DNA of 64,000 nt from Promethearchaeota archaeon (GTDB taxonomy: Archaea > Asgardarchaeota > Lokiarchaeia > Sigyniarchaeales > SOKP01). Of the stretch, positions 28,637-41,590 are shown piece by piece (positions within the stretch are counted from its first letter, which is position 1; the number at the start of each line of letters is the position of its first letter). Where the stretch lies: NCBI GenBank assembly GCA_016839765.1, contig JAEOTP010000043.1, forward strand, positions 96,001-160,000, in the 5' to 3' direction. The notes under the pieces are model-generated. The model saw only the letters and a program-made list of their open reading frames with translations. It did no database searches and was not told the DNA's origin. The translations under genes were made by a program, and so were the position numbers.

Positions 28637-29740
28637 TTAATATTTTGAAGGAGTTTTAGATTTGATTTTATATTTTGGTATCTCTTGAACTTTTTTCAAT
28701 TCTTTCTCAAAATCTCTTTTTTCTCTAAGGAACCTCTCTTTATCTCTTTCTAATTTTTCTCTTTCTCTTCTAATAGCATTTTTTTCAGTGTCTATCATCG
28801 ACTTTTCTTTTACTAAATGCTTATAATCATTATTTAATCTTTTTTGTTTATCTTCCAAATCACGAATCTTGCGTTCTAATGAATAATAAGTATCTTCCGC
28901 TTTAGGAACTTTCCTATTTAGCTCTTTTAATCTTGTTTCTTGTTGTTGTTTCTTTTTTTCCAAATTTCTTACATCATTTTCAATTTTATCTCTAAAGTTT
29001 TCCAAATCTTCTTTTTTTTTATCAATTTCACGAGCTTTAAGATTTAGATCTTTTTTTTTAATACGATTTTTTTCTTTTTCATCTTTTAATTTTCTTTTTT
29101 CATCATCAATCCGGTTTTTTTCATCAAAAATGTTTTTTCTTAGATCATTGATTTCTTTATTTAAATTATCCCTTTCTTTTGAAAGATGTTTGATTTCATT
29201 TCTCAACTCCATTAATTCATTTTCTAATTTTTCAATTGTTCTCTCTAATGCATTTTCTCTTCTTTCCATTCCAGGTATTTTGGTTTTAATCTCTTTAACA
29301 CGAACTTCTGCTCTTGCTTTTTCTCTTTCTAAATATTTTTTCTCACTTTCTAAAGCGTCTTTTAGTCTATCTAACTTTTCTTGATATTTATCTAGGTCGG
29401 CATTTTTTTGATCTAACTCTCTTTCTTTTAAACTTAGATTATTTCTATGTTGCTTTATTCCATTTTTCATTCTTTCTAATTCACTTTTTAACTTTTCACG
29501 TTGGTTTAGAAGATTTTTGACTTCAAGTTCTTTCTCTTTTCTCTTTTTTTCAAGTTCTTTTATATTATCTTGATACCCTTCAAGTTTTTTAATAACCTTT
29601 TCCCAATCGCTTTTTTCTCTGTTTAACTTTATCCTTTCTTCCTTTATCTTTTTAAGTAGTCTTGTATCTTGAATAATTTCGATTTCTTCTTCTGGCGTTT
29701 TCTCTCGAATTTGATACTTAGGAATTGGTTTATCATTCAT
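28637..29740 (-). CDS. Long coiled-coil protein with an internal duplication and matching terminal motifs
   Basis: K/E/R-rich heptads; IPKYQIREKTP at the N-terminus and IPKYKIKSKTP at the C-terminus. Confidence 0.8.
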   Translation of the reverse strand: MNDKPIPKYQIREKTPEEEIEIIQDTRLLKKIKEERIKLNREKSDWEKVIKKLEGYQDNIKELEKKRKEKELEVKNLLNQREKLKSELERMKNGIKQHRNNLSLKERELDQKNADLDKYQEKLDRLKDALESEKKYLEREKARAEVRVKEIKTKIPGMERRENALERTIEKLENELMELRNEIKHLSKERDNLNKEINDLRKNIFDEKNRIDDEKRKLKDEKEKNRIKKKDLNLKAREIDKKKEDLENFRDKIENDVRNLEKKKQQQETRLKELNRKVPKAEDTYYSLERKIRDLEDKQKRLNNDYKHLVKEKSMIDTEKNAIRREREKLERDKERFLREKRDFEKELKKVQEIPKYKIKSKTPSKY

Positions 29741-29944: not shown

Positions 29945-30373
29945 ATGGAGTTTGATGAAGAATTTGATGAAGAGTTTGATGATGAATTTGATGAAGAACT
30001 TGATGAAGAACTTGATGAAGAATTAGAAGAACCTTCTGCAAAAACTCCAGCGGAAGAGGTTAAAGCTAAAACTCCAGCGGAAGAGGTTAAAGCTAAAACT
30101 CCAGCAGTTAAAGCTTTTTCGGCAGGAAAAAAGATTTCAGTTTATTTTATGTCGACAATAGGTCCTGGTGAAAAAAAGCAAAAATTACTCATAAACACAG
30201 GAAACAGCGTTGGGGATATAAAAGAGACTGTTGCGAATTTATTTGGTTTAGATCCTGCTGATTTTCATTTATCTTCAGGTGGAATTACCATGGATGAGAG
30301 TTCAAATGTAAGTGAATATAACGTGAATGATGGAGAAGATATACTATTAATTCCAGCAAGTACTGCTGGTTAA
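29945..30373 (+). CDS. Ubiquitin-like modifier 1 with an acidic, repetitive N-terminal tail; ends -STAG
   Basis: Beta-grasp pattern SVGDIKETVANLFGLDPADFHLSSGG..VSEYNVNDGEDILLI; terminal Gly; E1/E2/JAMM/RING genes nearby. Confidence 0.88.
   Translation: MEFDEEFDEEFDDEFDEELDEELDEELEEPSAKTPAEEVKAKTPAEEVKAKTPAVKAFSAGKKISVYFMSTIGPGEKKQKLLINTGNSVGDIKETVANLFGLDPADFHLSSGGITMDESSNVSEYNVNDGEDILLIPASTAG
29948..30028 (+). repeat. Degenerate 12-bp coding tandem repeat encoding (F/L)DEE
   Basis: TTTGATGAAGAA / CTTGATGAAGAA units, about six copies. Confidence 0.85.
30041..30105 (+). repeat. 27-bp coding tandem repeat encoding KTPAEEVKA (two exact copies plus a partial one)
   Basis: AAAACTCCAGCGGAAGAGGTTAAAGCT at 30041 and 30068; partial copy at 30095. 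Confidence 0.92.
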
Positions 30374-30390
30374 AAAAAATCATTATCCTA

Positions 30391-31200
30391 TTAGTTTTTC
30401 TTTTTTAAATTTTTTTCTTTTCTTGATGGAATCAGAGCAATTTCGTCATCATCATCAATAGCATAATCTTTTATTTGTGAGTTTTCATGCAATAATATTC
30501 CTCCAGAGGATAAAAGAAAATCTTCTAAATTATAGTCAAATAATGTTCCAATTCTTTCTTTAACACTAAATATTAATTCTGTTGTATCAATTATAATGAT
30601 TTTTGTTTTTTCACCTGGCTCAACTAATGATCTTATATAAACTCGTATCTGGTCTTCCTTTTCAATAAAATTTGTAGGAGGTGTATAAATTATCCCCTCG
30701 TCAGTCTTATCCCTGTTTTTCAACATATTTTCGATTAATATTTTTCTCTCGTGTTTATCAAAATACAACATTTCTCTGATAAACATTATTTTATCCATTT
30801 TTGATAATTCTAAAAGATTTATTTTTTCTAATTCTTCCCCACTAAACACAGAAAAAATATATTTATTAATTATTTCCATATTATCATATGATTCATTTGA
30901 TTCAACATAATCTTCTATTGAAGGCATGACATCAATATAATCCTCAATAAGATCAATAGGTTTTTTTTTAATCGATTTTTGTTTTTTGACATATTTTTTC
31001 TCGCTTTTCCTCTCATCCTCACTACTCGCAGATTGAATAATTGTATAGATAGTACTGGTGGATAGTACTGAGACACTACCGATAACTAGAAAGAGAAATA
31101 AAGGAATACTTTCTATATGGAATAAGAAAAAAGCCATATAGATAATTACAAAAATAATATAAAGGGTTATAATACTTAAAACTCTATTTTTTTTCTTCAT
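30391..31200 (-). CDS. Membrane-anchored protein (2 TM) with a C-terminal UBL domain lacking the terminal Gly
   Basis: VYIRSLVEPGEK..VKERIGTLF..DFLLSSGG..IKDYAIDDDDEIALIP aligns to both modifiers; ends SRKEKNLKKKN. Confidence 0.82.
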   Translation of the reverse strand: MKKKNRVLSIITLYIIFVIIYMAFFLFHIESIPLFLFLVIGSVSVLSTSTIYTIIQSASSEDERKSEKKYVKKQKSIKKKPIDLIEDYIDVMPSIEDYVESNESYDNMEIINKYIFSVFSGEELEKINLLELSKMDKIMFIREMLYFDKHERKILIENMLKNRDKTDEGIIYTPPTNFIEKEDQIRVYIRSLVEPGEKTKIIIIDTTELIFSVKERIGTLFDYNLEDFLLSSGGILLHENSQIKDYAIDDDDEIALIPSRKEKNLKKKN

Positions 31201-31284: not shown

Positions 31285-31956
31285 TCATACACCTTGCATT
31301 TTTTTTCTAACTTTAGAATATTTATCTGTATCTAATTGGAATGTAATTCTTTTTTTTTCTTTTTCAATTTTTATTAATTTCAGTTTTTTTAAAACATATA
31401 AATATTTTTTAATTATATTATGATTCTTTTTTAAGTTAGTTGCTATTTCTGTAATTTTTAATGCTTTATCTTCCTTTTTCATAAAATTAATTATTTCTTG
31501 AACAATAGCCAAATTTAAATAATAATAGAGCTCGTCAAGTTCTGGATTTGAATCGTATTTATAAATAATTCTTCGATTGTTAATTTTTTTTGATCTAACA
31601 AATCGAAATTTTTCCAAACAAGATAGATGCCATAAAGCTTGATTACTTCCGATATTTAGAGCATTCATTATTTCATTAATATTTGACGGATTTTTCTTTA
31701 TGTAATTAAAGATTTCATTCCTTACTGGATGTTCAATAATATTATTTTTCATCAATTTTGTTCCAGGAATGATCATTCTCTTTTTAATAAGATTTTTAAT
31801 GGTAATTTCAATCCTAGCTTTATTGATAAAGGGATTTGATTTTACCCTATTACTAATAAATACAACAATGTTTTGTATTGAAAAGAATGGTTTTTTTTCT
31901 AAATATTCTTTTACTAATTCAAGAATAATAGATTCGACATTATTCATAGAGTTCAT
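31285..31956 (-). CDS. Tandem winged-helix (ArsR-like) transcriptional regulator
   Basis: HPVRNEIFNYIKKNP..EIMNALNIG..WHLSCLE and a second HTH, ITEIATNLKKNHNIIKKYL. Confidence 0.85.
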   Translation of the reverse strand: MNSMNNVESIILELVKEYLEKKPFFSIQNIVVFISNRVKSNPFINKARIEITIKNLIKKRMIIPGTKLMKNNIIEHPVRNEIFNYIKKNPSNINEIMNALNIGSNQALWHLSCLEKFRFVRSKKINNRRIIYKYDSNPELDELYYYLNLAIVQEIINFMKKEDKALKITEIATNLKKNHNIIKKYLYVLKKLKLIKIEKEKKRITFQLDTDKYSKVRKKMQGV

Positions 31957-32225: not shown

Positions 32226-32552
32226 ATGAGTTTTGAAGAAGATTTTGATGAGGAATTAGAACCTGTTAAATCTAAAACACCATCTACCAAAATTCCTTCA
32301 GCAGGAAAGAAATTGACTTTATACTTTACGTCAACCATTGGACCTGGTGAAAAGAAGGAAAAATTAACGGTAAATGATGCTAATCATGTAAGTGATATTA
32401 AGGAAACATTAGGAAATTTATATGGCCTTGATCCTAATGATTTTCACTTATCATCTGGTGGAGTTACTATGGATGAAAATAGTCAATTAAAAGATTATAA
32501 TTTAAATGATGGCGACGATATTCTTTTGATTCCTGCGAGTACTGCTGGGTAA
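32226..32552 (+). CDS. Ubiquitin-like modifier 2 with a short acidic tail; ends -STAG
   Basis: Close paralogue of 29945-30373: VSDIKETLGNLYGLDPNDFHLSSGG..LKDYNLNDGDDILLIPASTAG. Confidence 0.9.
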   Translation: MSFEEDFDEELEPVKSKTPSTKIPSAGKKLTLYFTSTIGPGEKKEKLTVNDANHVSDIKETLGNLYGLDPNDFHLSSGGVTMDENSQLKDYNLNDGDDILLIPASTAG

Positions 32553-32631: not shown

Positions 32632-33867
32632 ATGGTGATAATATTGGATAAAGATTCAGATTTTTTTGCAAAAGCATTGTCAGTAAAAGAGAGAGATTTG
32701 TATGATCGCCAGTTTCGTCTCGAGGGCTGGTCCCAAAAATTAGTAAAAAACTCGAGAGTGTTAATTGTTGGTGTAGGAGGTTTAGGATGTGAAATTGCTA
32801 AAAATTTAGCCATGTTAGGGTTAGGCCAATTAGATCTTGTTGATTTAGATATCATTGAACATTCTAATTTGAATCGTCAAATTCTTTTCACAGATGCGAA
32901 GATAGGAGAACCTAAGGCAGTTGTTGCTGCTCGAAAACTAAAGGAAATTAACCCTAATATTATTGTTAAGGGATATCATACATCTCTAGAAAGATTAAAT
33001 CCTGCATTATATCAAGCTGCTGAAGTTGTAATTGGGGGCCTTGATTCAATGAATGCGCGCTTGAACTTAAATGCTCAATGCATAAGATTTAGAAAACCAC
33101 TCGTAGATGCAGGAGTATCAGGTTATCATGGTCATATTTACACTATCTTTCCGTATCAAAATGCTTGTTATGAGTGCAATCCATTACCAGTAAGTGAAAG
33201 TGATGAAATGGCAGCTTGTACAGTTGTTGGAGTCCCCAGAAAAAGGATTCATTGTGTTTTTAAAGGAGATATGGCATTTAAAGAAAAGTTTGATAGAGAT
33301 CCAAATCCAAAAGATATAAATGATATTAAATTTATTCAAAAAGTTGCAAATGAATTGGTCAATAAACATAATTTCTTACCTGAATACACTAAAGATGATA
33401 TCATAAAAATCATTGATAGGCATGATCCTGGAATAATTACCATAAATGCAGTTATTTCTGCTTTACAATCACATGAGGTAGTAAAAATTCTTCATTGGAA
33501 AAAAGGTCATAAAGGATTAGGAGAACCTATTAAAAATTATGTGATTTTTAATGCCATGACGATGAAATTATACCATATTGAAAAAACGAGAAATCCAGAA
33601 TGTTCTCAATGTGGTAAATCTGTTAGAAGAGTAGCTATAAAAATGAGGTCTCAATCGCCATGTATAAATATAATTAAGATATTAAAGAAAAACGGATTTG
33701 AATTGGAGCCTGATTTTGAACCTGTGCTAACCTTATTGGATTTCAATGATATTAAAGTAATTGATTTAGAACAGAATACTATTGAAAACGGTTTAAGAAA
33801 TTACGAATTTATTACAGTTGCAGGGTTTAAGGGTGGAGAAATTTATGTAACCTTAAAATTAAAATGA
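32632..33867 (+). CDS. Ubiquitin-like activating enzyme E1 (Uba2/Uba3-like)
   Basis: LYDRQ, GVGGLGCE, DLDIIEHSNLNRQ, CYEC...CSQC Zn site, catalytic ACTVVGVPRKRIHC, C-terminal extension. Confidence 0.93.
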   Translation: MVIILDKDSDFFAKALSVKERDLYDRQFRLEGWSQKLVKNSRVLIVGVGGLGCEIAKNLAMLGLGQLDLVDLDIIEHSNLNRQILFTDAKIGEPKAVVAARKLKEINPNIIVKGYHTSLERLNPALYQAAEVVIGGLDSMNARLNLNAQCIRFRKPLVDAGVSGYHGHIYTIFPYQNACYECNPLPVSESDEMAACTVVGVPRKRIHCVFKGDMAFKEKFDRDPNPKDINDIKFIQKVANELVNKHNFLPEYTKDDIIKIIDRHDPGIITINAVISALQSHEVVKILHWKKGHKGLGEPIKNYVIFNAMTMKLYHIEKTRNPECSQCGKSVRRVAIKMRSQSPCINIIKILKKNGFELEPDFEPVLTLLDFNDIKVIDLEQNTIENGLRNYEFITVAGFKGGEIYVTLKLK

Positions 33868-33973: not shown

Positions 33974-34501
33974 ATGAGTATAAGAAGTAGTCGCGTTTCC
34001 CGCGATTTTGCTGGATTAAAAAAAATGCTTAAAGTTGGTACTATAGTTCAACTAAAACCATTTAATTCTAAAAAAAAGAGCATTGATCATTTAGCTATCA
34101 CAATTAAAGGCCCTAAAGGTACTGTCTTTGCTGGGGGACTTTTTAAACTAGAAATGAGATTCCCTGCTCAGTATCCTAAGCAGCCTCCTTTTGTAAGAAT
34201 GCATACTCCAATTTGGCATCCAAATTTTTGGCCAAAACCAAGTGAATACAAAGGAAAGAGAAATATTTGTCTAGCATTAATAGACCCTTCCTTAATTGGG
34301 AAAAAGGGTGGATGGAGTCCTTCAAAAACCGCTGTTACAGTAGTTCAAGCAATAATTGCTATGTTAAATACCCGGGGTAAATATGTAAACCCAACAGATG
34401 TTTTTAATAAAAAAGCAGCAATAGAAATGATGAAAAATCCTAAATTTTTCGAGAAAAAAGTTAAAAATTTAGTGAAGAAGTACGCTAAGAACAAGTGGTG
34501 A
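33974..34501 (+). CDS. Ubiquitin-conjugating enzyme E2 (UBC fold)
   Basis: GPKGTVFAGGLF..FPAQYPKQPP..IWHPN..ICL..WSPS. Confidence 0.95.
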   Translation: MSIRSSRVSRDFAGLKKMLKVGTIVQLKPFNSKKKSIDHLAITIKGPKGTVFAGGLFKLEMRFPAQYPKQPPFVRMHTPIWHPNFWPKPSEYKGKRNICLALIDPSLIGKKGGWSPSKTAVTVVQAIIAMLNTRGKYVNPTDVFNKKAAIEMMKNPKFFEKKVKNLVKKYAKNKW

Positions 34502-34508
34502 AATCATA

Positions 34509-35315
34509 ATGAATATTGATGAGAAGAAAAACAATTTAATCAAAGAAGCAATAAAGCAAAAAATTAAAGAGAAAATTAAAAAAGAATTACTTGAAGAGAT
34601 ATATACCGAATTACAATTAGAAGAAGAATTAAGGGAAGAAATAACTTCTGAACTTATTGAAACCCAGCCATTAGAGCATTCAGAAACAGTTAAAGCCAAA
34701 CTTGAACCCATACCAATGGAACCGGTAAAAACATATGCTAAGAATGATAAAGCTGAAGCAAAAGTAGCTCTAACAGTAAAAGCTGTCCTTAAGATCGCTA
34801 GTCATTCATTAAAATATGCTCATTCTAAAATTCGAAGAGAGGAATGGGTTGAAGTGATAGGATTACTCGCTGGAAAATTTGACAATACTAAAGGAGTCCT
34901 TCATGTGGAAGATGCCTATCCAATGGGACATGGTACAGCAGTTTATGCTGAAATTAAAGATTATAAAAATTATGTTAGAGCTTTTAAAGACATAAAAAAG
35001 AACAGCCTTTTTATTTGTGGATGGTATCATTCCCATCCTTCTTATGGATGTTTTATGTCTAAAGAAGATTTAGGAACTCAAGCAAGATACCAAAAATTAT
35101 GGGATAAAGCAATTGCGCTAGTTATAGATCCATACCAAATTGATGGCACTTCATTGGGTTTTGAAATCTATCGTGCGAATTTTAAAACAAATAAGTGGTT
35201 TTCAGTACCATTTGATATTAAAGGATATTTAGATGTGAGAATGTTGCCGGAAATTTTGGAATTTATGAATCCAATCATTGAAGGTAAACCTGTTTATTTA
35301 GAATATGATGAATGA
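34509..35315 (+). CDS. JAMM/MPN+ isopeptidase (Rpn11/CSN5-like) with an N-terminal coiled region
   Basis: EVIGLLAG...GWYHSHPSYGCFMSKED..TQ..ALVIDP. Confidence 0.93.
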   Translation: MNIDEKKNNLIKEAIKQKIKEKIKKELLEEIYTELQLEEELREEITSELIETQPLEHSETVKAKLEPIPMEPVKTYAKNDKAEAKVALTVKAVLKIASHSLKYAHSKIRREEWVEVIGLLAGKFDNTKGVLHVEDAYPMGHGTAVYAEIKDYKNYVRAFKDIKKNSLFICGWYHSHPSYGCFMSKEDLGTQARYQKLWDKAIALVIDPYQIDGTSLGFEIYRANFKTNKWFSVPFDIKGYLDVRMLPEILEFMNPIIEGKPVYLEYDE

Positions 35316-35338: not shown

Positions 35339-36490
35339 ATGGTTAAAAAGAAGGGTTTAGCAATAATATTTATTGTTTTTCTAATAATTGGTATAATACA
35401 TAGTTCTATCTCAATTTCCTTAAATATTTTTTTAACTTGGATATTTATTGGTTTATGGATAATTTTTACGATTAAGATTTTTGAAAATATAAAGCAGCAT
35501 CGCGAATTCAATTCACCACATAATACTGCTTTTTTTGTAATCATCCCTTTATTCATCGGAATTTTTTACTCCATTTGGGGGTATTTTACAGGTATATTGG
35601 GTGAAAACCTTCTTGAAGGCTCAAATATATATTTTAGTTGGTGGAGTCTCATTTTTGGATTTCCATTTATAATATATGGTTCTTATTCTTTATATCGTTG
35701 TTTTAAGAAATATAATGTAATCTATTTTGGAACCAAGTCAGTAAAAGCTAGGACATTAGGATATATTTTAACTTCCACAGTTATTCTTTTTATAATAATT
35801 TATTGGGTAATGTTTTATAGTGTTATAGAATTTTATGATTCTCTATTAACCCCTCTTCATTTTTCTTTAAATCTAAATCTTCTATTATTATTCATTGCAT
35901 CATTATTGATCTTTATTATTTTTGGATTAGCTAGTTCACATAGAACACTTCCAACATTAACTCGGGATTACATTGCTCAACGTACTAGAAGAATAAATTC
36001 ATTAAGTACTCCTACAATTCAAAGGCAAAGGGTACGTACAACAACTAGAACTACTCCATCACCTTCAAGAAGAACTGTGACTCAAACAACGAGGTCTAGA
36101 TCTCATTCATCGAGAACAACACCTACTTCCCAAAGGCAAAAAACTAGAACAACAAAAACTACTAGAACTAGAGCCGTAAAAACAACTTCAAAAGCTATAA
36201 ATTTAGATAAATATAAACCAAGAGCATCATATCTGTCAGAAGATGATTTTAAATGTATTTTTTGTTTTAAGCTGCCAAAACTACCCGATGATAATGGCAG
36301 AGGGATAATTGTATGTCCAAATTGTAGATATCCGGCTCATGCTGATGAATTTAAAGATTGGCTAAGAACCTCAAATCTCTGTTCAAGATGTAGTACTCCC
36401 ATTCCATCCAGATTTAAACATAATCCTAGAATAATTAGTATAAAAAATTATCAAATAGTCTATAGGCATTTTTTAAAGAAGAAAAGATAA
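35339..36490 (+). CDS. Multi-pass membrane protein with a C-terminal RING-variant domain (putative E3 ligase)
   Basis: About 6 TM helices, an R/T/S-rich linker, then C-x2-C-x16-C-x2-C-x4-H-x2-E-x10-C-x2-C with the RING Trp (KDWL). Confidence 0.85.
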   Translation: MVKKKGLAIIFIVFLIIGIIHSSISISLNIFLTWIFIGLWIIFTIKIFENIKQHREFNSPHNTAFFVIIPLFIGIFYSIWGYFTGILGENLLEGSNIYFSWWSLIFGFPFIIYGSYSLYRCFKKYNVIYFGTKSVKARTLGYILTSTVILFIIIYWVMFYSVIEFYDSLLTPLHFSLNLNLLLLFIASLLIFIIFGLASSHRTLPTLTRDYIAQRTRRINSLSTPTIQRQRVRTTTRTTPSPSRRTVTQTTRSRSHSSRTTPTSQRQKTRTTKTTRTRAVKTTSKAINLDKYKPRASYLSEDDFKCIFCFKLPKLPDDNGRGIIVCPNCRYPAHADEFKDWLRTSNLCSRCSTPIPSRFKHNPRIISIKNYQIVYRHFLKKKR

Positions 36491-36495
36491 TTAAG

Positions 36496-37455
36496 CTAAT
36501 TTTTTAATTTGATATTGTTTCTTAAATCTCCGATAGTAGTCACTAACTCTGCATAAACATTGTGCGGATGAATTGATTCAAAACTCTCAATTTTAAAGAT
36601 AACTTTAAAATCATCCTCTAAATTTGGAAAATTTCTTATAATAAAATTCTTAGCCATTTCTCTAATTACATCTTCGGCAAATAATGGTTTTAAATGAGCA
36701 CTTCTGACTAGTTTAGCTTCCTCTGGTCTTTTTAATACAGATTGCATTTTTCCGCTCATTGAATCTTCAATAATTTCAATAATATCTAACACATCAATCT
36801 TATGATTATTTAAATCCTTTATTTGCACTATTATAGTTCCATTTGATCTTTGATTATGTGAGCTAAAGGGTAAAATGTTGAGAAGTTTTTGTACTGTATC
36901 ATCAGGAATATTTATATCACTTCTATTTTTAATAATTTCTTCAGCATATTCTTGACTCATTTCCTTTGCACACGGACAAACTGTCATTCCAACGGCGCTT
37001 GCTCCAATAAAGTAATTAAAGTCAATTTTTTTCTGTTGGTTCTTCCAAGCTTTCACAAATGAACTTATATTATACGCTTTTTGTATTGTTCGTTGCTTAT
37101 CATCTTTTGCTTGGACTATAATTTTGCCCTCTAGTTTAACTTCAACTTTTTCAGTATATGAATGTTTTTGTAATAATTTTCGAGCAATCCTATCTCCTAC
37201 TACTTCTACAGAGGGAGTTGGCTTGAATATTACTTCATTTATGATTTCCTCAATAGTTTCAGATGTTCGAGACATATGGATTCCTCTTTTGTGTCTAGGT
37301 AATGAAATTAATGCGGAAATTATAGGATAAAAAGAATATTTTTTATTTTCTTGAATGATATCTACTTTTTTTTCTACTCCTACAATTCCTACTTTATCTA
37401 TAGGAATGTCTACTGTCGAAATTGAGTCTTGTAAATCCTTTTTAAACAGATTGAT
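36496..37455 (-). CDS. mptA: GTP cyclohydrolase MptA (FolE2 family)
   Basis: RGIHMSR, GMTVCPCA, SHNQR, LKRPEE, FAEDVIR, ESIHPHN; conserved N-terminus DLQD..IDKVGIVGV lies upstream of the track ATG at 37275. Confidence 0.92.
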   Translation of the reverse strand: MNLFKKDLQDSISTVDIPIDKVGIVGVEKKVDIIQENKKYSFYPIISALISLPRHKRGIHMSRTSETIEEIINEVIFKPTPSVEVVGDRIARKLLQKHSYTEKVEVKLEGKIIVQAKDDKQRTIQKAYNISSFVKAWKNQQKKIDFNYFIGASAVGMTVCPCAKEMSQEYAEEIIKNRSDINIPDDTVQKLLNILPFSSHNQRSNGTIIVQIKDLNNHKIDVLDIIEIIEDSMSGKMQSVLKRPEEAKLVRSAHLKPLFAEDVIREMAKNFIIRNFPNLEDDFKVIFKIESFESIHPHNVYAELVTTIGDLRNNIKLKN

Positions 37456-37552
37456 TAAAAATCACCGATATTTATTTGCTTCTACCAATTCTAATAATTA
37501 TTATTCAATTAAATTATTTTTTGATATAATGTAAAATTAATTTTGTTTTTTT

Positions 37553-38716
37553 ATGTACAGTTCAGAAATTTTTAGCAATTATGGTTTAATTGGTGATAAC
37601 TTAGAACTAAAAAGAGATATTAAATTAGAAATTGATGAAAATGGTAATTTTAAGGGTATTTCGTATAAAAATGTAGGAAATACGGTCCACCTTTCAGATA
37701 ATAATTCAAATTTATTATTAGTACCCGGATTAATCAATTCTCACATTCATATAGGAGATAGTTTTGCCAAGGAACAAGGGTTTAATAAATCTTTAAAGGA
37801 AGCTGTCGCTCCCCCAAATGGAATTAAGCATCTCCTATTAAAACAAGCTCCAAAAGAAGAGAAAATAAAAGGGATAAAAAAGGCAATACAGGAAATATTT
37901 TCAAATGGAATTACTTTTTTTATCGATTTTAGGGAAGGGGGATTTGATGGACTTAAGATTTTATATGAATTTATTGAAAGAGAAAAAATTATTGATTCTT
38001 TTATTTTAGGAAGATATAGAGAGAAAGAAGAGATAAAAAAGATTTTCAAATTAGCAGATGGGGTAGGTTTACCCAGTTATAAAGGTATACATCCAGAAGT
38101 TAAAAAAATCCTAAGAAAATGTAAAGCGGAGACTGGAAAAATTGTTGCTTGTCATGTTGCTGAATTAAAAAGGAATAGTAGTTTAATAAATCAAATTTTT
38201 AATGATAATATAGTCGATATCTTCATTCATGGAACTCATTTCATTAAAAAAGATTTAAAACTTTTAGTACAAAAAAATAAAGCCTTAATTTTATGCCCAC
38301 GTTGTAATGGATATTTTGGAGCTGGTTTTCCACCAATAACTAATATTTTAAAACTAAAAATACCCTTAGCAATCGGAACAGATAATGTAATGGCTAATAG
38401 TCCTGATTTATTTGAAGAATTGCGGTACTTATACCGGATCTTAAGAGTGATGGACAAGAACATAAAAGTAACAGGGAAAGATTTGCTAAAGATGGTTACA
38501 ATTAATGCTGCTAAAATCTTTAATGTTGAAAGTCGGATAGGTTCGATATCAGAAGGGAAAAATGCGAATTTCTTTATAATTGATTTAAATAATCCTAATT
38601 ATTATACACCAAAATTAAATATTGATACGTTTTATGCCTTAATCATTGGAAGAACTAATTCATTTAATATTAAAAAAACATATGTAAGGGGTAAACTTGT
38701 CCATGAAAAACGCTAA
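37553..38716 (+). CDS. Amidohydrolase family metal-dependent deaminase
   Basis: PGLINSHIHIGD, HVAE, IHGTH, GTDN. Confidence 0.88.
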   Translation: MYSSEIFSNYGLIGDNLELKRDIKLEIDENGNFKGISYKNVGNTVHLSDNNSNLLLVPGLINSHIHIGDSFAKEQGFNKSLKEAVAPPNGIKHLLLKQAPKEEKIKGIKKAIQEIFSNGITFFIDFREGGFDGLKILYEFIEREKIIDSFILGRYREKEEIKKIFKLADGVGLPSYKGIHPEVKKILRKCKAETGKIVACHVAELKRNSSLINQIFNDNIVDIFIHGTHFIKKDLKLLVQKNKALILCPRCNGYFGAGFPPITNILKLKIPLAIGTDNVMANSPDLFEELRYLYRILRVMDKNIKVTGKDLLKMVTINAAKIFNVESRIGSISEGKNANFFIIDLNNPNYYTPKLNIDTFYALIIGRTNSFNIKKTYVRGKLVHEKR

Positions 38717-39368
38717 AAAACCTTATATTATTTTAAATGCAGCCATGACGATAGATGGGAAGATTTCCTCAAAAGAGGGAGATTCTGAAATATCAGATGA
38801 AGAGGATTGGAAAGAAGTTCATAAACTTAGAACTCAAGTAGATGCGATTATGGTTGGAAAAAATACAATTTTAAAGGATAATCCTAAACTTCATATTAAA
38901 TTTTATGAACATAAAGGTTATTATCGTATTGTTATAGATAGTAACTTATCCATTCCAATTGATTCACAGGTGATAAATTTTAAGCCAGAAACCTATCCTA
39001 CAATAATATGTACTACAGAAAATGTACATCAAGAAAAAGTTAAAGAATTTGAAGCTAAAAACATAAAAGTAATGAGGAACGGAAAAAGTTCACGCGTAGA
39101 TCTTAAAAAGTCAATGTCAAATTTATATAATTTAGGGATTAAATCTGTTCTTCTAGAAGGTGGAGGGAATCTAAATTGGAGTTTTATTAAGGAAGATTTG
39201 GTGGATGAAATAAGACTAACTATAGCACCATGGATTATAGGAGGAAAAAGTTCTATCACGTTAGCTGATGGTGATGGCTTTGAAAATATGCTCCAAGCTC
39301 AAAGGTTTAAACTCGTTGATCTTAATCATAGGGAGGATTATGTTATTTTAAAATATAAAAGATGGTAA
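38697..39368 (+). CDS. arfC: 2,5-diamino-6-ribosylamino-4(3H)-pyrimidinone 5'-phosphate reductase (archaeal RibD2/Rib7)
   Basis: AMTIDGKI, DAIMVGKNTILKDNPKL, LLEGGG. Confidence 0.9.
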   Translation: MSMKNAKKPYIILNAAMTIDGKISSKEGDSEISDEEDWKEVHKLRTQVDAIMVGKNTILKDNPKLHIKFYEHKGYYRIVIDSNLSIPIDSQVINFKPETYPTIICTTENVHQEKVKEFEAKNIKVMRNGKSSRVDLKKSMSNLYNLGIKSVLLEGGGNLNWSFIKEDLVDEIRLTIAPWIIGGKSSITLADGDGFENMLQAQRFKLVDLNHREDYVILKYKRW

Positions 39369-39369
39369 A

Positions 39370-40482
39370 ATGAGTAAAAATACAAATTATTATAAAAATC
39401 TTTCAATCCGAAAACTAAAAGAAAAAGTAACACAGATAAAATCCTCATTACCAGATGAGAGTCGACATACTATCACGTTTTCAAAAAATTTCACCTTATC
39501 TTTATCAAATTATTGCCAAAATGAATGTAAATATTGTTTTTATAATTATAAAGTTCCTAAACTAGAGGGTAACGGTAATGTCATTCTTATAGGAAATGAG
39601 CAAATTATTACACTGATTCAAAAAGCCATAAAGTCAAATTGTAAGGAAGCTTTATTAATGTCTGGAGAAAGACCAGATAGCTTCATTGAGGTTAAACGAG
39701 AATTAAGAGAGAGAAAATGTAATGATTATATGCATTTTATTATTGTTATTTGTTCTTATCTTTTGGATTTTAAACTCTTGCCTCATACCAACTTTGGAGT
39801 ACTTACTTTTGAGGAATTAGATAAATTAAAAAATTTTAATGCCAGTATGGGGCTAATGTTAGAAAGCACTAGCTTAGAATTATTCAAAAAAGGTGGAGTT
39901 CATGAATTATCGCCAGGTAAATTACCAGAAAAAAGAATAGCCCATATTAAGAATGCGGGAAAGTTAAAAATTCCGTTCACCACAGGTTTATTATTAGGAA
40001 TAGGTGAAAATTTCGAAGATAGGATTAGAGATCTTAACTTAATCAAAGAAATTTATGAAGAATATGGCCATATTCAGGAAGTCATAATACAAAATTTTGT
40101 AGGAAAAGAAGGAATTCAATATCATCCAGAATATCCCATATCAATTGAAGAAACTCTAAAAATAGCAGGTATTGCAAAACTTATATTTGGAAACGAGATA
40201 GCCATCCAAGTACCTCCTAATTTAATACGAGGATATGAGAAAGAAGCAATCGAGTTAGGAGTCAATGATTTTGGAGGGATATCTCCATTTACAATTGATT
40301 TTATCAATCCTGATCATTTATGGCCTCAAATTAATAATTTAAAAACTATTTGTAGGAATTTAGGTTATAAACTTAAAGAAAGATTTCCAATTTATGAAAA
40401 ATATATACAAAAATCAGAATTCTGTCCAGTAAATATTAAAAAAATTATAGATAATATTAATTTAAATGGTACAGATTTATAG
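39370..40482 (+). CDS. cofG: FO synthase subunit 1 (radical SAM)
   Basis: ITFSKN..CQNECKYC, LPHTN, SMGLMLE, PFTTGLLLGIGE, QVPPNL. Confidence 0.93.
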   Translation: MSKNTNYYKNLSIRKLKEKVTQIKSSLPDESRHTITFSKNFTLSLSNYCQNECKYCFYNYKVPKLEGNGNVILIGNEQIITLIQKAIKSNCKEALLMSGERPDSFIEVKRELRERKCNDYMHFIIVICSYLLDFKLLPHTNFGVLTFEELDKLKNFNASMGLMLESTSLELFKKGGVHELSPGKLPEKRIAHIKNAGKLKIPFTTGLLLGIGENFEDRIRDLNLIKEIYEEYGHIQEVIIQNFVGKEGIQYHPEYPISIEETLKIAGIAKLIFGNEIAIQVPPNLIRGYEKEAIELGVNDFGGISPFTIDFINPDHLWPQINNLKTICRNLGYKLKERFPIYEKYIQKSEFCPVNIKKIIDNINLNGTDL

Positions 40483-41590
40483 TCAAATTAGGCAAAATAT
40501 TAAATCGATTTTGAAGAAGACTCTCGAATCAGAAGAAATTACTTCTCAAGAAGCTTTAGAACTTCTTAATGTGACAGGAAAAGAATTTAGAGCATTACAA
40601 GCTACGGCAGATGAAATTTGTTTTAAGAAAAAGCAGAATATTGTCACATTTGTAATAAATAGGAATATAAATTTTACAAATATTTGCCAAAAAGGTTGTA
40701 AATTTTGTTCCTTCAGTGTTCCTATTGCAAGTAAAGAAGGGTTTTTATTAACCATTGAGGAAGTAAGAAAGAAAGTTCAGGAAGCCCAAATTAATGGCTG
40801 TTCTGAAGTATGTATTCAAGGTGGCATACATCCTAAATTAAAATTTGATTTTTATCTTGATATTTTAAAAACTGTAAAAAAAGTAAATCCAGAGATTCAT
40901 ATACACGCATTCTCACCTCAAGAAATATATTATATGTCTAAATTATCAGGCAATAACATTGAAGATACTCTAAAAATTTTGAAAAAATCAGGTTTAGATT
41001 CAATACCGGGTACTGCTGCTGAAATTTTGGTTGATAAAATAAGAAAAATTATATGTCCAAATAAAGTAAGCACATCTGAATGGATTAACATCATATCTAT
41101 AGCTCATAACTTAGGAATACCCACCACATCAACAATTATGTATGGACATATTGAAGAGTTGGAAGACAGAATTAAACATTTAGAAATTATAAGAAATATT
41201 CAGAAAGAGACCCATGGGTTTACTGAATTTGTGCCTTTACCTTTTGTTAAAGAAAAACCAATGTTAGCTAGATTAAAAGATTTTCCATTACGATTGAGTT
41301 ATGGAATGGCAGACTTGAAATTATTTTGTGTAGCAAGATTGTTTTTTAATAATTATATTGATAATTTACAATGTTCGTGGGTAAAATTAGGACCAAAATT
41401 CGCACAAGTATCTCTTAATTATGGAGTCAATGACTTTTCAGGAACATTAATGGAAGAGAATATCTCAAAGAGTGCTGGTGCTGAATTTGGAGAATATTTA
41501 TCACCAGATGAAATCATTAAAATCATAAAAAGTGCTGGGAAACGACCAGCTCAAAGAAATACGTTATATAATATTGTAAAATATTTTTAG
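40466..41590 (+). CDS. cofH: FO synthase subunit 2 (radical SAM)
   Basis: NRNINFTNICQKGCKFC, PGTAAEIL, TIMYGH, FTEFVPLPF, SWVKLG, GTLMEENIS. Confidence 0.93.
   Translation: MVQIYSQIRQNIKSILKKTLESEEITSQEALELLNVTGKEFRALQATADEICFKKKQNIVTFVINRNINFTNICQKGCKFCSFSVPIASKEGFLLTIEEVRKKVQEAQINGCSEVCIQGGIHPKLKFDFYLDILKTVKKVNPEIHIHAFSPQEIYYMSKLSGNNIEDTLKILKKSGLDSIPGTAAEILVDKIRKIICPNKVSTSEWINIISIAHNLGIPTTSTIMYGHIEELEDRIKHLEIIRNIQKETHGFTEFVPLPFVKEKPMLARLKDFPLRLSYGMADLKLFCVARLFFNNYIDNLQCSWVKLGPKFAQVSLNYGVNDFSGTLMEENISKSAGAEFGEYLSPDEIIKIIKSAGKRPAQRNTLYNIVKYF

Follow-up and report, generated by a model that had tools for sequence, protein, structure and literature searches.

A membrane RING protein in an Asgard ubiquitin-like operon

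The closest described relatives of the system reported here are the operons of Ca. Caldiarchaeum subterraneum and Asgard archaea that carry Ub, E1-like, E2-like, small RING finger protein (srfp) and Rpn11 genes (PMC5654768; for the Helarchaeal cascade, 10.1101/2023.07.25.550441); the 2017 supplement gives only small RING proteins as known from archaea (PMC5654768). In eukaryotes, the ubiquitin ligases (E3s) Hrd1/synoviolin and gp78/AMFR join a polytopic N-terminal membrane domain to a cytoplasmic RING, and the MARCH/Doa10 ligases are membrane-embedded RING-CH (C4HC3) proteins. We analyzed a 64,000-nucleotide stretch of a Promethearchaeota archaeon, a member of the Asgard group that is closest to eukaryotes (GCA_016839765.1, contig JAEOTP010000043.1, positions 96,001 to 160,000; hereafter the window), in which the gene at 35339-36490 on the + strand encodes a 383-residue protein, TM-RING, with a bundle of transmembrane (TM) segments followed by a RING. 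As far as can be read from sequence, TM-RING works like the C. subterraneum/Asgard cascade, is laid out like the Hrd1 type and belongs to neither. Its sequence and predicted models make it probable that TM-RING is the RING E3, anchored in the membrane, of a dedicated Asgard cascade for a ubiquitin-like modifier. No description of the family was found in the literature, of which key subscription papers were not covered.

TM-RING is the last gene of a + strand unit encoding, in order, a ubiquitin-like protein (Ubl), E1, E2 and a JAMM protease, and begins 23 bp after the JAMM gene. The linked Ubl, E1, E2, JAMM and RING genes, with catalytic motifs in place, are those of the archaeal Ub-E1-E2-RING-JAMM operon, the E1 being of UBA type and the E2 an HPN/Cys enzyme as in the srfp operons. 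The E1 (32632-33867) is of the UBA1/UBA2/UBA3 type (best structure matches at E ~1e-38, UBA5 at ~7e-16). The E2 (33974-34501; Pfam UQ_con, E 1.2e-25) is a standard enzyme that matches ubiquitin E2s, with HPN, Cys99, a loop 4 of YPKQPP and a loop 7 of WSPS. The JAMM/JAB isopeptidase (34509-35315; Pfam JAB, E 1.7e-15) keeps the E...HxH-x7-S-x2-D motif; all three enzymes retain their catalytic motifs. Two Ubls, Ubl-B (32226-32552) and Ubl-A (29945-30373, with a longer tail), match the ubiquitin family and end in IPASTAG. The diglycine terminus expected of the modifier of such operons is therefore replaced by Ala-Gly; S-T-A-G is invariant in 24/24 aligned Ubls and reads S-[T/I/V]-A-G across loci. 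The modifier also differs from that of the srfp operons in its acidic N-terminal tail, an acidity that Ubl tails show in every lineage examined. Judged by Pfam and by enzyme type, the system is not of the UFM1 kind, whose modifier ends in a single Gly, although the Ubl may correspond to the structure-defined Asgard 'Ufm1' of PMC12962969: the Ubl has no Ufm1 match in Pfam, the E1 is nearer to UBA1/2/3 than to UBA5 and the E2 is of the HPN ubiquitin type.

This arrangement is conserved. Across 105 loci compared, JAMM lies directly upstream of TM-RING in 98 of the 99 with enough flank, and E2, E1 and Ubl genes are present in 80/80, 79/80 and 78/80 loci; 80 of the 105 are close kin and hence not independent, and the distant loci, homologues at 20-30% identity included, retain the gene order or a simple rearrangement of it. 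Searching 1.84 billion representatives brought up 120 matches. Full-length members reach down to about 24% identity, and the family has lengths of 360-465 aa and the six-TM fusion throughout. Those relatives that carry a name come almost exclusively from Asgard archaea. The nearest loci belong to Promethearchaeota/Lokiarchaeia assemblies, and named members include Helarchaeota, Borrarchaeum and the cultured Ca. Lokiarchaeum ossiferum. The last carries the whole operon, and its orthologue (UYP46707.1) is labeled in UniRef only as 'RING-type domain-containing protein'. Of the 33 families in a 400-genome sample of the phylum, 12 contain both full-length TM-RING (E<1e-30) and the STAG Ubl (E<=1e-15); the other 21 yielded neither. 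Judged by gene order and co-occurrence, these comparisons show that the TM-RING gene is inherited together with the Ala-Gly Ubl, E1, E2 and JAMM protease. Two single-contig genomes of the same order as the source genome (4.3-4.4 Mb, 92-93% complete) have neither full-length TM-RING nor a STAG Ubl, so the operon appears to have been lost as a unit in some Lokiarchaeia.

The RING domain

The RING (36254-36391) was recognized through its family. TM-RING alone passes no Pfam cut-off, and the family profile matches RING-H2 ligases (RNF24, E 1.1e-5), the best RING matches being active ligases of this class. Fold searches with this part of the predicted model give lists filled with RING and U-box structures, in keeping with a cross-brace fold, and zinc-free U-boxes score as well as RINGs. 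Among 106 family members, Prok-RING_1 (PF14446), zf-RING_16 and zf-RING_2 match 29, 32 and 20 at E<=0.1 (best E 8e-5, 9e-4 and 1e-5); none of these models takes in the TM bundle.

Seven of the canonical eight Cys/His ligands are present and invariant (C306, C309, C326, C329, H334, C348 and C351), and the sixth is Glu (E337, codon GAA at 36347-36349). This Glu defines the family: it occurs in 120/120 close homologues and in 104/105 loci, and of 97 distant members whose motif is intact, 96 have it and one has Ala. In the alignment with RNF24, E337 takes the place of the sixth ligand. Since C306, C309 and H334 are invariant, we infer a Cys2-His-Glu zinc site, predicted to accompany one Cys4 site. 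Ligand 6 is His in the five nearest soluble RINGs and His or Cys in soluble RINGs of the source genome, which indicates that the position varies among archaeal RINGs; the membrane family would, most simply, have fixed Glu from His. The original prediction read the ligand order, the Trp, about six N-terminal TM segments and the R/T/S linker from the letters alone, all of which hydropathy, the AlphaFold2 (AF2) model and the alignment bear out. Its comparison with C4HC3 RINGs holds for the four Cys and the His at ligand 5. RING-CH domains are N-terminal, with the spacing C-x-C-x7-H-x2-C, whereas the TM-RING domain is C-terminal and reads C-x2-C-x4-H-x2-E; it is not a RING-CH domain.

The surface predicted to face E2 combines familiar and altered positions. 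F308 in loop 1 and W341 in the helix (Trp in 102/102 motifs) occupy E2-contact positions and match I30 and W58 of the C. subterraneum srfp, where these residues and R69, at the linchpin position, matter for activity (PMC5654768). As in the srfp operons, the RING spacing has an extra Cys pair, and the Trp is conserved. TM-RING departs from srfp in its Glu at ligand 6, in its loop 2, which reads [S/A/P]-R-C-[N/S/D/G] in 105/105 loci with a near-invariant R350 where RINGs are usually hydrophobic, and at the linchpin position, which is S/N/D in the family and Ser in the source protein. The predicted RING-E2 interface has clearly been remodeled with F308 and W341 retained. The original prediction passed over these departures, namely S-R for the Pro-hydrophobic pair of loop 2, S/N/D at the linchpin position and, on the E2 side, Lys in loop 4 of most Loki sequences. 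The Arg in loop 2 and the absent linchpin Arg suggest that activation is probably unlike that of canonical RING-E2 pairs in detail.

The membrane bundle and the cytoplasmic tether

Unlike the small soluble RINGs of the srfp operons, the RING of TM-RING is fused by a long tether to a six-TM bundle (aa 1-198, 35339-35932). Hydropathy of the query and 121 aligned relatives places six membrane segments in residues 7-198, where AF2 predicts six long helices with high confidence. Counted as a family mean, Lys plus Arg number 1.7 at the N-terminus; loop 2-3 has 2.7, loop 4-5 has 5.7 and the part after TM6 has 5.8. Loop 3-4, with 0.3, and loop 5-6, with 0.4, are both acidic. By this positive-inside bias, with six passes, the two termini and the RING are cytoplasmic. 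The original prediction had named an extracellular RING as the first result that would refute it, and it withstands that check. A conserved helix (aa 209-223, 35963-36007; Y211, R215 and L222 invariant among close kin) follows TM6. Topology and the predicted model together show six TM helices that hold the RING in the cytoplasm on a flexible tether of about 70 residues.

The bundle has no recognized fold. It has no sequence or Pfam link to Hrd1, gp78, MARCH or Doa10 and no match in Foldseek; the comparison with HRD1 by VIA-align gave noise-level scores in two different registers, and the Doa10/MARCH6 TM fold is absent among the fold-search matches listed. Its cytoplasmic loops are conserved, with a REFNSPxN motif and an RCFKKY β-hairpin. 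A RING-less six-TM paralogue of 181-206 aa, homologous to the bundle (hhalign 97.4%, E 1.3e-11), adjoins or neighbors the TM-RING gene in non-Loki lineages (L082:3168-3743, L084:6180-6800, L086:8140-8718, L087:8471-9055, L097:10206-10793, L101:11297-11884 and L104:8948-9526, by locus of our comparison). Named examples come from Hodarchaeales and Heimdallarchaeota, and none was found in the source genome. The conserved loops and this copy argue that the bundle is more than an anchor and suggest a role in oligomerization or substrate selection. The genome also encodes four other multi-TM proteins whose C-terminal end carries an all-Cys RING-like motif in which Trp precedes the last Cys pair; they form an unrelated-looking second set of membrane zinc-finger proteins (contig positions C6:41400-42593, C43:19150-19902, C76:7840-8838 and C95:3304-4344).

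The linker (aa 225-290, 36011-36208) is basic in all members, with a net charge of +8 to +28 (median +17), and depleted of Lys. Residues 243-282 are disordered in the AF2 model, 60% of residues 200-290 are Thr, Arg or Ser, and no Lys occurs in aa 137-267. Its K/(K+R) of 0.15 is the lowest of 28 disorder-like stretches; comparable windows of the same proteome have a median of 0.73. Across loci the median is 0.17, compared with 0.73 for E1, E2 and JAMM of the same locus, and the linker has the lower value in 104/104 loci; the disordered Ubl tails use Lys almost exclusively over Arg. Two reports describe Lys-poor regions that shield eukaryotic ligases from self-ubiquitylation (PMC10665810; 10.1101/2023.01.18.524605), and by this analogy the Lys avoidance of the linker gives indirect support for lysine conjugation near the RING.

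Proposed mechanism and candidate acceptors

In the proposed mechanism, E1 would charge E2 with the Ala-Gly Ubl, the RING would bind E2~Ubl and promote transfer to lysines of proteins at the inner membrane face, and the JAMM protease would remove the Ubl and, where a propeptide is present, also mature it. By keeping Arg over Lys, the tether would stay basic, for binding to the membrane surface or to a partner, and yet escape its own tagging. The first candidate acceptors are the K-T-P lysines of the Ubl tails, which would give chains, and those at the ends of a coiled-coil protein encoded upstream (28637-29740, - strand), a candidate substrate or partner. The motif ψ-x-x-K-[T/I]-P lies in the Ubl tails (KTP in Ubl-B, three KTP in Ubl-A), with K-T-P kept in at least 90% of aligned Ubls; K[TI]P stands at both ends of the coiled-coil protein in 47/51 homologues; and the full motif recurs in neighbor genes of distant lineages (L084, L087-L089, L092-L094 and L099). 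Three proteins of the genome have two motif copies, two of them at the TM-RING locus. SUMO chains have a comparable motif-based acceptor site. On sequence grounds K-T-P may be an acceptor site, or else a docking or phosphorylation motif; its recurrence favors motif-directed membrane tagging over general quality control.

Alternative explanations

Several observations weigh against a ligase. The Pro-hydrophobic loop 2 and the Arg after the last Cys are missing in 105/105 loci, and TM-RING lacks a linchpin Arg although R69 matters in C. subterraneum. Mutation of E2 P67/Y68 abolished activity in C. subterraneum (PMC5654768), yet in loop 4 of the operon E2 most Loki sequences carry Lys or Arg and only 10/96 an aromatic residue (Tyr). 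A second E2 is encoded elsewhere in the genome, as are other RING proteins, and these could serve the cascade; the Arg-over-Lys bias could come from lipid or nucleic-acid binding. The non-canonical loop 2, linchpin and E2 loop 4 would suit a scaffold or receptor whose task is membrane recruitment, whether of E2, of the JAMM protease or of Ubl-tagged proteins, its RING serving structure or dimerization while E2 itself drives transfer on K-T-P. Ubc9 transfers by itself on SUMO consensus sites in this manner, and since the Ubl tails and the coiled-coil protein have a motif in common, it may be the motif that directs transfer. The weak likeness of the RING to IFT144/WDR19 zinc fingers and Pfam zf-RING_16 points the same way, RING-like folds of these families being partly structural. 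We regard such a scaffold as improbable, since the conserved W341/F308 surface, the Lys-depleted tether and the strict linkage to E2 fit a ligase and the top profile matches are active RING-H2 ligases. Within the ligase reading, it is doubtful that the first zinc site is degenerate, with one zinc bound and E337 acting as part of a salt bridge or of the E2/Ubl surface, an arrangement compatible with activity. Glu is an unusual RING ligand, one homologue has Ala, and the equal scores of zinc-free U-boxes agree with a single zinc; against it, the invariant C306, C309 and H334 are hard to explain without metal, E337 aligns to a ligand of RNF24, and Asp was never seen at this position.

The original prediction proposed electrostatic capture of the acidic Ubl tails by the linker, and both charges are indeed conserved. 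They do not co-vary (Spearman coefficients of -0.16 and 0.11 for 85 loci and of -0.07 and 0.26 for 19 distant ones), although this is a weak test. The preference for Arg over Lys is left unexplained by charge, and the basic E2 is an equally good partner for the tails; tail capture is unsupported and doubtful, and Lys avoidance is the stronger signal. More doubtful still is a true homologue or forerunner of the Hrd1/gp78 ligases of endoplasmic-reticulum (ER)-associated degradation (ERAD), whose targets would be misfolded membrane proteins, to be extracted by Cdc48 and the proteasome. The layout is shared, and the TM-RING profile matches Hrd1/gp78 RINGs weakly (E 0.013-0.5); there are six TM segments instead of eight, the ligands are C4-H-E-C2 instead of C3H2C3, and no Hrd3/SEL1L- or Der1-like gene was recognized among the neighbors examined. 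The original prediction of a prokaryotic analogue or precursor of membrane E3s thus divides: the cytoplasmic RING and the fixed E1-E2-JAMM-Ubl operon make TM-RING a likely analogue, and the bundle offers no sequence or Pfam link for a precursor.

Neighboring genes and other ubiquitin-type genes

Two further - strand genes stand between the Ubl genes: a membrane-anchored protein (30391-31200) whose C-terminal Ubl domain is related to the STAG Ubls, lacks a terminal Gly and is kept in close Loki kin only, and a winged-helix protein (31285-31956), divergent from the operon and kept in close kin. Downstream, 36496-41590 holds metabolic genes, the first of which encodes a FolE2 GTP cyclohydrolase (Pfam) adjacent in most close kin, followed by an amidohydrolase-like gene, a RibD-like reductase and two radical-SAM genes that resemble CofG/CofH by motif only.

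The three Ubl domains of the TM-RING locus are the only Pfam ubiquitin matches in the 96% complete genome. The second E2 (169 aa, C23:9999-10508) lies about 2 kb from a 524-aa open reading frame with an E1/ThiF-like nucleotide-binding motif (C23:12454-14028), and no Pfam ubiquitin gene is close to this pair. Three paralogous proteins of 84-87 aa end in or near Gly-Gly (W-A-[R/K]-V-[I/V]-G-G; C33:162640-162903, C76:10558-10812 and C95:2917-3177) and are possible further ubiquitin-fold modifiers that Pfam ubiquitin misses.

Implications

Reconstitution of archaeal E3s has so far concerned small soluble RINGs. The present system is directly testable, as the RING domain, E1, E2 and Ubl are small and soluble and K-T-P provides a candidate acceptor. 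A Cys2-His-Glu site that operates beside an altered loop 2 would add to what is known of the chemistry of RING-E2 activation. It is a long shot that the bundle is a remote homologue of the Hrd1 membrane core (TM3-8) and that the ligase with its Hodarchaeales RING-less partner is a surviving relative of the ERAD ancestor; if so, membrane-protein ubiquitylation and extraction would predate the ER. Whether or not it was ancestral to ERAD, a conserved polytopic RING with an E1, E2, JAMM protease and Ala-Gly modifier of its own would show that membrane-organized ubiquitin-like tagging arose in the archaeal relatives of eukaryotes.
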